Source: Crocinitomicaceae bacterium (GTDB taxonomy: Bacteria > Bacteroidota > Bacteroidia > Flavobacteriales_D > Crocinitomicaceae). Taken from it: DNA of 64,000 nucleotides. A model generated the notes under the pieces. It made no database searches. It was not told the DNA's origin and saw nothing but the letters and a program-made list of their open reading frames with translations. The stretch covers positions 1,640 through 65,639 of the forward strand of contig JBGCFR010000025.1 of the NCBI GenBank assembly GCA_045107045.1. The letters are read 5' to 3'. Below, piece after piece: positions 1 to 35,427 of the stretch (positions are counted from its first letter, which is position 1; each line of letters starts with the position of its first letter). The position numbers were made by a program, and so were the translations under genes.

Positions 1-450
1 GGAAAGCGTCAATTTTCGCTTACTTATGTAAGTGACCTTGTTGATTCTATAGTTAAAGCTTTGTCAAAAAATATTAAAAATAACACCTATAATGTGGTTA
101 GCAACCCAAAAACCAATATTAATGAAGTTATTGAATATGCGACTGAAATCCTTAATTCTAAAAATGAGCTGATTAATGCAAAACCAGAGTTTTTGAAGAA
201 AAACAAAGTCAGCCAATGGTTTGATATGCCTTTTTGGTTAGATGGAGATTTCTTTACTCATAGTAATCATAAATATATTAACGATTTTGAATTAGAACCA
301 ACAGAATTGAAAAAAAGCATTGAAGAAACTATAAAGTACTATGAAAATTTAGGATGGAAAGAACCCAAATATGGAATGACAGAAAAAAGGAGAATGGAAC
401 TTCTTGAAAAAATTAATAAAAAAACTACAGCTAACAACGTGTATAATTAA
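1..450 (+). CDS. NAD-dependent epimerase/dehydratase-like protein, C-terminal part (5' truncated by window edge)
   Basis: Frame is open from base 1 (GKRQFSLTYVSDLVDSIVKAL...TYNVVS...DMPFWL), resembling the C-terminal half of extended SDR proteins; the stop codon lies inside the attC-like element. Confidence 0.65.
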   Translation, partial: GKRQFSLTYVSDLVDSIVKALSKNIKNNTYNVVSNPKTNINEVIEYATEILNSKNELINAKPEFLKKNKVSQWFDMPFWLDGDFFTHSNHKYINDFELEPTELKKSIEETIKYYENLGWKEPKYGMTEKRRMELLEKINKKTTANNVYN

Positions 451-557
451 TTACTACGGAATTCCTTCGCAGGAATTCACTCGAATTAATTAACTTAGCT
501 CAACGTCGGAAAATCCTAACTGATTTTCCGTAACTAACCATACAAAAACCGTTATAA
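429..557 (+). repeat. attC-like recombination site / imperfect inverted repeat
   Basis: AGCTAAC (429-435) and GTTATAA (551-557) core-like boxes. A 13-bp arm (441-453/531-543) has three A/C mismatches that become G:T pairs on the bottom strand. Two internal hairpins (459-478, 507-530). Confidence 0.6.
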
Positions 558-1043
558 TGCAATAGCCCAACCACTTCTCGAAGAAAAATAACAGGTGAAA
601 TAGCGGTGAAAAAACCACAGTAACCGAAAGTTCAAGGCGGACAGCACCCAAGGCAAACCACAGTATTTTAAAATGCAAAATGTTAGCGGCATTAACTCGG
701 CGGACTGCACCCACAGTTTGGAAAACCAATTCGGTGCGGGGCGACTGACAATTTTATTTGAATTATGTGTGGAAAGTTGCGGTTTAAGTTGGAGCTGACC
801 ATCAGGAAAAAATGTTTGAATTCAAGTAAAAACATTAGTAAGACCGGCTAGTTCCGCCAGCGATAGCCAGGAAATCCGTCGGCCGCACTTTTGTTTTGAG
901 CAGGATGAAATCATTTGTTTGTGCGGGTCTTGAGTTTTTGGTTCGTTTTGTGTCAAGACAAAATGAACGAAAGATGAACGGGAAATTAGAGTAGAATAGG
1001 TGTAAAATTTTAAAAGTTAGTATGTTGGAAAATAAAAAGCATG

Positions 1044-1110
1044 TTACAACAAGCAAAATTTACAGCGAAGCTGTTCGGCATAAATGCCTATTTTTACCCA
1101 AACGTTAGCT
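1044..1110 (+). repeat. second, shorter attC-like site
   Basis: TTACAAC (1044-1050) ... GTTAGCT (1104-1110), with internal hairpins acagc/gctgt (1062-1074) and ggcat/atgcc (1077-1088); outer arm pairing is weak. Confidence 0.4.
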
Positions 1111-3179: not shown

Positions 3180-3297
3180 AGCTAGCAACAGTTAAATTCA
3201 ATTTGCATTTACAATCAAGCGTTTTAGTTCTCTGAAAGTGACACTAAAACATGGTTTAGAATAATAAAATAGCTAGTTAAGCTAAACAATGCTATGG
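3180..3297 (+). repeat. degenerate attC-like site
   Basis: AGCTAGC (3180-3186) ... GCTATGG (3291-3297) around a perfect 8-bp hairpin gttttagt/actaaaac (3221-3250); similar length to the 429-557 element. Confidence 0.3.
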
Positions 3298-3484
3298 CGG
3301 TTATCTAATTACAGTCTGCGCGAATGCAAACAGAAATTTAGTCAGGCGTAATCACTATAAATACGATAGAATAGTTTCAGGAATTACCCTTAAAAATTCA
3401 GACATTGATTATTAGTAACGGGTAGGAGCAACCACAGACCCCTCATGGCAAGGCTGAAAGATAAAAATTTATCAAGCTACCAAA

Positions 3485-31353: not shown

Positions 31354-32937
31354 TTATCTTCTTCCTCCTCTGCTCGAACTTGAATTAGAACTTCTTGAAC
31401 TTGACCTGCTGCTTGATCCAGAAGAACTTGACCTGGTAGGAGTAGACCTTGAAGGTGATGTTCTAGTCGGCGTCGACCTTGTTGGTGTTGTTCTAGTCGG
31501 TGTTGATCTAGTTGGTGTCGATCTAGTTGGTGTCGATCTAGTTGGTGTCGACCTTGTTGGTGTCGATCTAGTTGGTGTCGACCTTGTTGGTGTTGTTCTA
31601 GTCGGTGCTGACCTTGTTGGTGTCGATCTTGTTGGTGCTGATCTAGTTGGTGCAGTTCTAGTCGGCGCAGTTCTGGTTGGTTCAGTCCTAGTTGGTGCAG
31701 ACTCTGTTGAATTTCTTGTAGGACTTGTATTCCTAGGGGCAGTTCTACTTGGTGCTGATTCAGTGTTAGTTCGTGTTGGTCTAGTATTAGAGTTAGTTGT
31801 TCTATTCGTTTTAATAGGTTTAGCTTCCCATCTATTAGTAGCTGGTTTTAAATCCCTAGGTTTACTAATTGGTGTTCTTGTATTTGAGCTTTCTGCCGAA
31901 TTGTTGGTTGATTTAGTCGGCGGTGTTATTCTTCTATCCAAATTATTCGAATTTTCTTTAGGAGAAATCCTATTAGATTCAACTCCTCTCGTGTTTCTAG
32001 ATGGCAATTTTGCAGCTGCATAATTGTCTACTACTCTCTGATCTTGACGATTTGGTGTGTCAAAACTTGGCTTTTTTGCGGCCACCGGAGTTCTTTGTTT
32101 GCTATTTGAAGCAACAGTATTTGTTGAAGTTGCACTTGCACTTCTTACTGTAGTAGGGTAGGCTGTATTGTTATTTGATCTTGAGCCTGTGCTCATACCT
32201 CTTCTATGGCCATAGTGATGATTATTGTTTCCATTGGCAAAATCATTCGAATTGTTCCAATTATTATTTGCATTATTCCAACCATTGTTCCAACCATTGT
32301 TCCAACCATTATTCCAGCCATTGTTCCATCCGCCAGCATAGTAAGGATTGTTCCAACTATTATAGTATGGTGAGTTCCATCCGTTATAGTATGGTGAATT
32401 CCATCCGAAGTTACCATAGTAGGGATTGTTCCATCTGTTATAATATGGGTTGTTCCAACCATTGTAAGGATTACCCCATCCACCATAATATGCGGTGTTC
32501 CATCCCCAGCTAGGTCCATTTAAGTAAAAACTATTATACCCCCATGAGTTACCCCAATATGCAAAATTTGCACGTGGTCTATAATAATTAAAGTGGTTAA
32601 AGCGGCAATTGTTTCGGTAGTGAATCTCGCAAAAGACATTCGTATTGGTGTTAACTGCATTGCCATTATTGCTATAGTAATTGTTTACGGTGATGTTGTC
32701 ATTGTTCGAAAAAGACTGATTAGGATTTTGCTCTTCTGACCTGTCTTCTACAATAATTTGGTTATTTTCGTTTTCCGCATCCTTAATAAATGCATCATAT
32801 CCTGATTCATCTTTAGTCTCAGTATACACAAGTTGGGGTGCGTCATAAACATCATCATGTAAGATTTTGGTAGTTTGACAAGAATTAATGGTTAAAACTC
32901 CGATCATTGTTGCTAAAAAATAAAATGTCTTTTTCAT
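31354..32937 (-). CDS. low-complexity lipoprotein (DDVY motif, W/N/Y-rich repeats, Pro-Thr-Arg tail)
   Basis: MKKTFYFLATMIGVLTINS-C lipobox at ATG 32937, followed by HDDVYD; WNxPYY and GWNN repeats; PTR(S/T) tail. Confidence 0.85.
   Translation of the reverse strand: MKKTFYFLATMIGVLTINSCQTTKILHDDVYDAPQLVYTETKDESGYDAFIKDAENENNQIIVEDRSEEQNPNQSFSNNDNITVNNYYSNNGNAVNTNTNVFCEIHYRNNCRFNHFNYYRPRANFAYWGNSWGYNSFYLNGPSWGWNTAYYGGWGNPYNGWNNPYYNRWNNPYYGNFGWNSPYYNGWNSPYYNSWNNPYYAGGWNNGWNNGWNNGWNNGWNNANNNWNNSNDFANGNNNHHYGHRRGMSTGSRSNNNTAYPTTVRSASATSTNTVASNSKQRTPVAAKKPSFDTPNRQDQRVVDNYAAAKLPSRNTRGVESNRISPKENSNNLDRRITPPTKSTNNSAESSNTRTPISKPRDLKPATNRWEAKPIKTNRTTNSNTRPTRTNTESAPSRTAPRNTSPTRNSTESAPTRTEPTRTAPTRTAPTRSAPTRSTPTRSAPTRTTPTRSTPTRSTPTRSTPTRSTPTRSTPTRSTPTRTTPTRSTPTRTSPSRSTPTRSSSSGSSSRSSSRSSNSSSSRGGRR
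31430..31699 (-). repeat. 18 x 15-bp coding tandem repeat, (T/A)PTR(S/T)
   Basis: Units such as gatctagttggtgtc, counted by hand via the antisense DLVGV units. Confidence 0.92.
32272..32331 (-). repeat. 5 x 12-bp coding tandem repeat (GWNN)
   Basis: attRttccaNcc x5. Confidence 0.92.
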
Positions 32938-35261: not shown

Positions 35262-35333
35262 GGCCCATTCGTCTAGTGGTTAGGACGCCAGGTTTTCATC
35301 CTGGAAACAGGAGTTCGATTCTCCTATGGGCTA
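35262..35333 (+). tRNA. tRNA-Glu (anticodon TTC)
   Basis: 72-nt cloverleaf: acceptor GGCCCAT/ATGGGCT, anticodon arm CCAGG-TTTTCAT-CCTGG, GTTCGATT T-loop; CCA not encoded. Confidence 0.97.
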
Positions 35334-35355: not shown

Positions 35356-35427
35356 GGCCCATTCGTCTAGTGGTTAGGACGCCAGGTTTTCATCCTGGAA
35401 ACAGGAGTTCGATTCTCCTATGGGCTA
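35356..35427 (+). tRNA. tRNA-Glu (anticodon TTC), identical second copy
   Basis: Same 72-nt sequence as 35262-35333. Confidence 0.97.

Follow-up and report, generated by a model that had tools for sequence, protein, structure and literature searches.

A likely attC-type recombination site at the end of an epimerase cassette in a Bacteroidota integron-like array with an insertion-less tyrosine recombinase

Here, we report that a 129-nt element at positions 429-557 of the window, a 64-kb stretch of DNA (C18:1640-65639) from a Crocinitomicaceae genome assembled into 79 contigs and 96.7% complete, is very likely the attC-type recombination site of a cassette carrying an epimerase gene, within an integron-like array of Bacteroidota whose recombinase has no IntI insertion. 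The evidence comes from the anatomy of the element, its membership in an array, a split-site rule that runs through the cassettes, homologues with covariation, strand asymmetry across the family of sites, and the linkage of integrase genes to arrays.

Results

Anatomy of the element

An earlier note on this DNA had read the order R″-spacer-arm-two hairpins-arm-spacer-R′ in the element, and that layout proved correct to the base (Table 1). The core of the arm, GTATAATTAATTA at 441-453, pairs over 13 bp with TAACTAACCATAC at 531-543 as read from the sequence, and the pairing can be extended from 13 to 15 bp (440-454/530-544), giving a longer arm than had been described. Its only mismatches, A445/C539, A446/C538 and A450/C534, are all A·C on the top strand, that is, G·T on the bottom strand, just as the earlier note had pointed out. 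The unpaired spacers of the site are asymmetric (4-5 nt on the 5′ side, 6-7 nt on the 3′ side), and both R-box triplets are intact, with AGCTAAC agreeing with RYYYAAC at 6/7 positions and GTTATAA with GTTRRRY at 5/7. The extrahelical bases of classical attC sites, which had escaped identification before, are absent from the 15-bp stem, which has no bulge.

Table 1. Coordinates of the epimerase cassette, its recombination site and the neighbouring features of the window
Feature	Position	Strand	Remarks
3′ part of cassette gene, NAD-dependent epimerase/dehydratase	1-450	+	PF01370, 69.5 bits
attC-type site (very likely), long type, 129 nt	429-557	+	Full-length match of model R2 at exactly these coordinates; homologues
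R″ box AGCTAAC	429-435	+	Pairing region reaches 5′ to about 422 (AAACTACAGCTAAC)
5′ spacer AACG(T)		+	Directly 3′ of R″ AGCTAAC; read from sequence
L″ arm TGTATAATTAATTAC	440-454	+	Holds the epimerase stop codon; conserved in several Flavobacteriales genera
Variable centre with two hairpins (459-478, 507-530)	455-529	+	From folds
L′ arm GTAACTAACCATACA	530-544	+	15-bp pairing with L″ arm
R′ box GTTATAA	551-557	+	Putative crossover between G551 and T552
Next cassette	552-1110	+	No credible ORF; ends in its own attC at 1041-1110
attC of next cassette	1041-1110	+	True R″ TTACAAC 1044-1050, R′ GTTAGCT 1104-1110; R1 E 2e-16, R2 E 2e-13
Decayed long attC-type site, about 170 nt	3180-3351	+	87% identical to C5:43519-43695; below R2 threshold

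Folding of the lone element is strong on either strand, with a z-score of about -5 on both relative to shuffles. In the single-sequence minimum-energy fold, an alternative inner pairing of TAATTAATT at 444-452 with 484-492 forms on both strands, at the nearly equal energies of -20.3 versus -21.1 to -21.3 kcal/mol, and the canonical outer stem reaches a probability of only 0.002 on the top strand and 0.02 on the bottom. With the arm as a constraint, the energies are -13.5 (top) versus -16.4 kcal/mol (bottom). The anatomy is confirmed; for this single sequence, the minimum-energy fold does not separate the strands.

A hairpin-rich segment at the 3′ end of a gene, with both strands folding well, is also what would be expected of a generic intergenic palindrome, be it a REP/BIME-like repeat, a MITE or an intrinsic terminator. 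Neither hairpin in 429-557 is followed by a T-run, however, which speaks against a terminator. A repeat search found no second copy of the element within the 64-kb window, and an Rfam gathering search of the window returned two tRNAs only and no family matching the element. These tRNA genes are identical and lie 94 nt apart, at 35262-35333 and 35356-35427 (65.1 bits each); the window also contains a tandem repeat at 31400-31757 with a 15-nt period and about 24 copies, probably within a coding region.

Membership in an array of sites

Two covariance models were used to place the element among other sites. The first, R1, was built from 12 textbook-looking sites of this genome, of which GCCTAAC-AAC-AAATAAAAAT...ATTTTTATT-CAAAC-GTTAGGC is an example, and it matched 24-30 sites in the genome, six of them co-oriented on C68(-) and another two on C18(+). 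An overlap of 141 nt connects the two contigs in these orientations. Read across this junction (C68 reversed, then C18), the sites form a co-oriented array of at least nine attC-type sites, in which the 429-557 element is the eighth and the epimerase cassette is the seventh of at least eight chromosomal cassettes. R1 gave no match to 429-557 itself, even with filters off at E 10. The second model, R2, was iterated from 108 R1 matches in this genome and two congeners, with one long-type homologue included in its seed; applied to the 64-kb window with filters off, it recovered 429-557 exactly and at full length with 23.2 bits and E 0.009, a modest score from a model whose E-values are rough. The sole other site that it found in the window was 1041-1110.

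Among R2 matches, sites of 123-132 nt are a common subclass. AAC and GTT stand at the model positions in more than 100 of the 119 sites of the family, and several sites carry a mutated GTT. The cassettes of the array include a ParD antitoxin/ParE toxin pair upstream of the window, at merged coordinates 726-1269 of C68(-), and otherwise carry unrelated genes. Two flanking motifs recur: the A-rich AAAAACGAAA is often found 5′ of R″ (many sites, for example on C68, C5 and C34), and GTCATT/TTCAT is often found 3′ of R′ at cassette starts.

The split-site rule and cassette organization

In integrons, crossover takes place between G and TT, with the consequence that the complement of R″ is found in the opening bases of its own cassette and not in the adjacent R′. 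In 71 cassettes from three genomes, we compared the 11 nt after the upstream GTT with the reverse complement of the 11 nt before the cassette's own AAC. Mean identity was 6.03/11 within a cassette, whereas comparison within one physical site gave 3.88 (p 1e-10) and random pairing gave 3.54 (p 9e-20). The epimerase cassette, which begins at C18:1054, the G|TT of the preceding attC, scores 10/11, with GTTAGCTGTAGTTT, the reverse complement of the R″ flank, set against the cassette 5′ end GTTAGCTGTAATTT after GTT.

The cassettes have a median length of 1251 bp, and the longest ORF is co-oriented with the site in 66 of 68. The distance from G|TT to the start of these ORFs is about 20-28 nt, and 4-17 nt separate their stop codons from R″; seven cassettes have a stop codon within the site, as does the epimerase cassette. 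There, the gene encodes 337 aa, starts at C18:1076 upstream of the window and ends in ...TTANNVYN, with its TAA stop at 448-450 inside the L″ arm, so that the earlier observation of an epimerase ORF stopping within the element was sound. The element thus lies where it had been said to lie, at the 3′ end of a gene, and it does so inside a co-oriented cassette array.

Neighbouring cassettes and decay at the array edge

DNA from the TTATAA of R′ onward is assigned to the next cassette, which is non-coding. Copies of this cassette are found at C5:50058-50479 (94%), C19:123-280 and C71:31611-31813, and the sequence from GTTATAATGCAATAGC (TTATAATGCAATAGC...) onward stands downstream of three different attCs, on C18, C5 and C19, implying fairly recent movement. 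The C19 copy breaks off at an internal ...ATGCAAAATGTTAGC, where the 3′ part of an attC of another type takes over, so that half of a decayed attC, or a secondary site, may lie within the non-coding cassette.

Further downstream, the decayed site at 3180-3351 has both R triplets mutated (AAC to AGC in R″, GTT to GTA in R′) and closes a fossil cassette with a T9SS beta-propeller gene at 1383-2939. The array therefore fades into the chromosome rather than stopping at 1110.

Homologues of the element

Beyond the window, the element is multi-copy, with copies on C43 and C40 of this genome, in the genomes G001 and G008 of the same genus, and in Flavobacteriales bacterium ALC-1. The copy on C40, detected by BLAST, is decayed, with its R′ end gone. 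In four homologues, drawn from three genomes and including those on C43, G001:C117 and G008:C13, the arms are kept around a different centre; in these, all three A·C positions are retained and compensatory changes occur at three paired positions, so that the homologues both covary and keep the wobble positions. ALC-1 carries two copies that are about 93% identical over the whole element, inner hairpins included, with different R boxes. The occurrence of these copies in another family suggests that families have exchanged cassettes or types of site. Winogradskyella and ALC-1 share the arm TGTATAATTAATTRC/GYAACTAACCATACA, and slightly changed forms of it occur in Xanthomarina and Flaviramulus. 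In ALC-1, locus L087 (ABHI01000003.1, 11923-21043) contains at least eight sites of 129-134 nt downstream of an integrase gene. A nested shorter attC defined by the internal AGCTAA/TTAGCT (429-434/495-500) was considered and rejected as coincidental; the ALC-1 copies, which have a different R″, do not preserve it.

Copies with conserved ends, exchangeable centres and cassette-specific R boxes are not what a generic palindrome would leave behind. Nor would such a palindrome have an orientation strictly tied to gene and array, or yield covariance-model matches concentrated in arrays beside integrase genes. We give that explanation next to no credence and favour an attC-type site.

Strand asymmetry across the family

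The comparative consensus fold separates the strands clearly, at -17.6 kcal/mol for the bottom strand versus -6.0 kcal/mol for the top strand, and the bottom-strand consensus contains a continuous 17-bp L stem together with the R stem. Individually, 88 sites are more stable on the bottom strand versus 17 on the top (DNA parameters), and shuffles indicate that base composition accounts for only about one-third of this strand-stability effect. Transition mismatches of the L stem on the top strand number 120 A·C versus 14 G·T in 107 distinct sites under symmetric scoring, with a p of 4e-22 that overstates independence because many of the counted sites are related by descent; the pattern nevertheless holds in separate lineages, and in other genera the counts are 40 A·C and 1 G·T. 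This excess of A·C on the top strand across the site family argues that the bottom strand is the folding strand. A strand difference of the kind proposed in the earlier note appears only with the arm imposed and in the comparative folds; in the single-sequence minimum-energy fold, the strands are nearly equal. Bulges across the family fall on the L′ arm in 71 cases versus 28 on the L″ arm, and the spacer modes are 4 and 5 nt. From these sequence comparisons, a detail emerges that appears to be new: three fixed G·T wobble positions, rather than extrahelical bases, may distinguish the folding strand.

One-sided wobbles combined with covariation are also the classic signature of an RNA helix, and a structured RNA transcribed from the bottom strand, antisense to the cassette genes and with ordinary G·U pairs, would produce both. 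Such an RNA would leave the split-site rule at G|TT, the array organization and the linkage to a recombinase unexplained, however, and no Rfam family matched. We regard it as very improbable, and take the wobbles instead as a property of a DNA recombination site.

The candidate recombinase and its insertion site

The earlier note had assigned the element to a poorly characterized integron-like system of Bacteroidota, and the search for its recombinase agrees with this. No match to TIGR02249, the model for canonical IntI, lies above the cut-off in this genome or in 30 relatives from its genus, family and order. The best candidate is C64:574-1713, which encodes a 380-aa Xer/XerA-like tyrosine recombinase with all catalytic residues present. 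It scores 233 bits with NF040815, 212 with TIGR02249, 203 with XerD and 201 with XerC, and positions 180-240 of TIGR02249, which cover the IntI additional domain near patch III, are unmatched. In the alignment to VchIntIA (2A3V), it matches on either side of a gap of about 43 aa located exactly at the IntI insertion. Besides its SAM_4 and Phage_integrase domains, the protein has an N-terminal extension of about 100 residues, which is conserved and forms a small beta/alpha domain in the AlphaFold model (pLDDT 80.5). The best Foldseek matches of the model are XerA and VchIntIA, in their recombinase cores only, and the N-terminal domain has no Foldseek match.

At least 565 homologues of this integrase are found in Crocinitomicaceae, many Flavobacteriaceae, Cyclobacteriaceae, Marinilabiliaceae and others. 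Across 80 of these loci, all 21 R2 matches (14 loci) lie downstream of the integrase gene and on the same strand, a placement with a chance of about 1e-17 per match and about 1e-11 per locus. Contigs end within 2 kb of the integrase gene on its downstream side at 41 of the 80 loci versus 7 on the upstream side, as would arise from assembly-breaking repeats. G001:C117 holds a complete platform, in which the integrase gene is followed by ...CCAGTA|GTTAGCTAC and then by four ORF-plus-site cassettes, the second of whose sites is a homologue of the 429-557 element.

In about 18 genera (for example at L074, L081 and L087), a hairpin, then 4-5 nt, then GTTRNNN are found 35-110 nt after the integrase stop. 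The hairpin has the consensus GGATATAG..loop..CTATATCC, and the sequences beyond the GTT are mutually unrelated, as variable cassettes. This integrase-proximal site resembles the L″-loop-L′-spacer-R′ part of an attC without R″. In the present genome it reads ...TATACCCGGTT|GTTAGCTGTAAC on C64(-), at C64:520-575, and the contig ends about 0.5 kb beyond the GTT, with no physical link to the array in the assembly. A 23-nt BLAST match to the 5′ end of the element, at C64:516-538, was at one stage a candidate half attC, and turned out to be this same integrase-proximal GTT site on the other strand.

The integrase at C64:574-1713 and its homologues are most likely the acting recombinases, an assignment made by linkage only, and a site without extrahelical bases is in keeping with an integrase without the IntI insertion, the part of IntI that reads such bases. 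The classical geometry of R″/R′, asymmetric spacer and L″/L′, and the textbook GCCTAAC...GTTAGGC form of some sites in the array, would also fit a standard integron attC whose canonical IntI is missing from the 96.7%-complete assembly; arrays break assemblies, so genes near them can drop out. We nevertheless find a missing IntI improbable, since its absence extends to 0 of 31 genomes of the genus, family and order, since arrays begin directly after the insertion-less integrase in 14 loci and many genera, and since the element has no extrahelical bases, with family bulges mostly on the L′ arm, opposite to the classical arm.

A more serious alternative is that the element is attC-type by descent and now inert, the array being a CALIN-like fossil in which recombination has ceased in this genome. 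The mutated triplets of the next downstream window site at 3180-3351, the C40 copy without its R′ end and the mutated GTT of several family sites would all fit such a history, as would an integrase contig unlinked to the array and an alternative inner fold predicted to dominate. Yet in 429-557 itself AAC, GTT and the conserved wobble positions are retained and the 15-bp arm is intact, an undamaged integrase gene specifying every catalytic residue is present in the genome next to a GTT site, and the non-coding cassette stands behind three different attCs, with the fairly recent movement that this implies. On this evidence, inertness is unlikely, though it retains some plausibility, and we prefer to see the element as the recombination site of a mobile cassette.

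Discussion

By analogy with integrons, we envisage that the bottom strand of the element would fold when single-stranded in vivo, with R″ pairing with R′; in the excised circle, this R″/R′ stem would be at least 10 bp long. The asymmetric unpaired spacer of 4-5 nt versus 6-7 nt would come next, followed by the 15-bp stem of the L″ and L′ arms, which would be complete on the bottom strand only, since on that strand the three mismatches become G·T wobbles instead of A·C, and the two small hairpins would cap the folded site. A tyrosine recombinase would then cleave between G and TT (on the bottom strand, AA|C), and the partner in the strand exchange might be a second attC or the hairpin-plus-GTT site found directly after the integrase gene, which would be the equivalent of attI. 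We place the element in a non-canonical variant and not among classical attC sites because the extrahelical bases and an IntI with the additional domain are both absent.

The closest comparison is to the attC sites (59-base elements) of Vibrio cholerae, which are about 120-130 nt long and belong to a sedentary chromosomal integron with VchIntIA as its integrase. They have the same order as the 129-nt element, R″(..AAC)-spacer-L″-variable-L′-spacer-R′(GTT..), and, like it, lie at the 3′ end of a compact co-oriented ORF with R″ complementary to the start of their own cassette. Toxin-antitoxin cassettes in the array are another feature in common with the V. cholerae integron, and a preference for bottom-strand folding, which the comparative evidence favours, would be a further one. 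Unlike V. cholerae attC, the element has no extrahelical bases, and bulges in its family fall mostly on the L′ rather than the L″ arm; its strand asymmetry is carried by conserved G·T wobbles; and its centre is a two-hairpin branch, not one long stem. The Bacteroidota recombinase, unlike VchIntIA, has no IntI insertion.

The arrangement of integrase and array has a precedent in the "inverted" integrons of Treponema and Chlorobi and in archaeal integrons, in which attI is downstream of a co-oriented intI (bioRxiv 10.1101/2022.02.06.479319). As in those systems, the insertion site and then the array come after the Bacteroidota integrase gene, in its orientation, the attI-like site thus standing downstream of a co-oriented integrase gene and not upstream of a divergent one. 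The inverted and archaeal integrases carry the IntI-specific domain, however, whereas in the Bacteroidota enzyme that domain is missing and an additional N-terminal one is present.

The substrate of Xer enzymes is dif, a double-stranded site of 28 bp. The Xer/XerA chromosome-dimer recombinases (PDB 4a8e, 5hxy) are the best sequence and fold matches of the C64 integrase; unlike them, the Bacteroidota enzyme adjoins arrays of folded cassette sites. In a survey of tyrosine recombinases, the IntI insertion was described as "not fully conserved" in an "integron-like" subgroup of simple tyrosine recombinases, and no insertion-less enzymes were tied to arrays (Smyshlyaev 2021, PMC8138268). A cluster of attC sites without an integron integrase is termed a CALIN (IntegronFinder; PMC4889954, PMC9024848), and the C68-C18 array would fit this definition if the attC model of IntegronFinder sees its sites. 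Unlike CALINs, the Bacteroidota arrays have a dedicated recombinase, one that the IntI definition excludes. With IntegronFinder 2.0, Bacteroidetes yielded only In0 elements and one complete Salinibacter integron (PMC9024848). We found no published cassette arrays with an insertion-less integrase in Bacteroidota in the literature searched, which by itself leaves novelty unproven.

Taken alone, 429-557 is a more modest result, one well-supported member of an integron-like system. Beyond it, we lean toward the view that the Bacteroidota have a phylum-wide, so far unpublished analogue of the integron, in which a Xer-like recombinase without the IntI insertion and with an N-terminal domain of its own inserts captured cassettes into a hairpin-plus-GTT site that closely follows its gene, and the strand is marked by conserved G·T wobbles in the L stem instead of extrahelical bases; the near-identical sites in Crocinitomicaceae and Flavobacteriaceae would then reflect movement of cassettes between families. 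The IntI-specific domain serves both to define integrons and to search for them, and the Bacteroidota are regarded as nearly integron-free. If our view is true, single-stranded, structure-specific recombination of cassettes is possible without the IntI insertion, and a second code for strand choice might exist that uses fixed G·T wobbles in place of extrahelical bases. A large mobile-gene reservoir in marine and environmental Bacteroidota would then be escaping current surveys.
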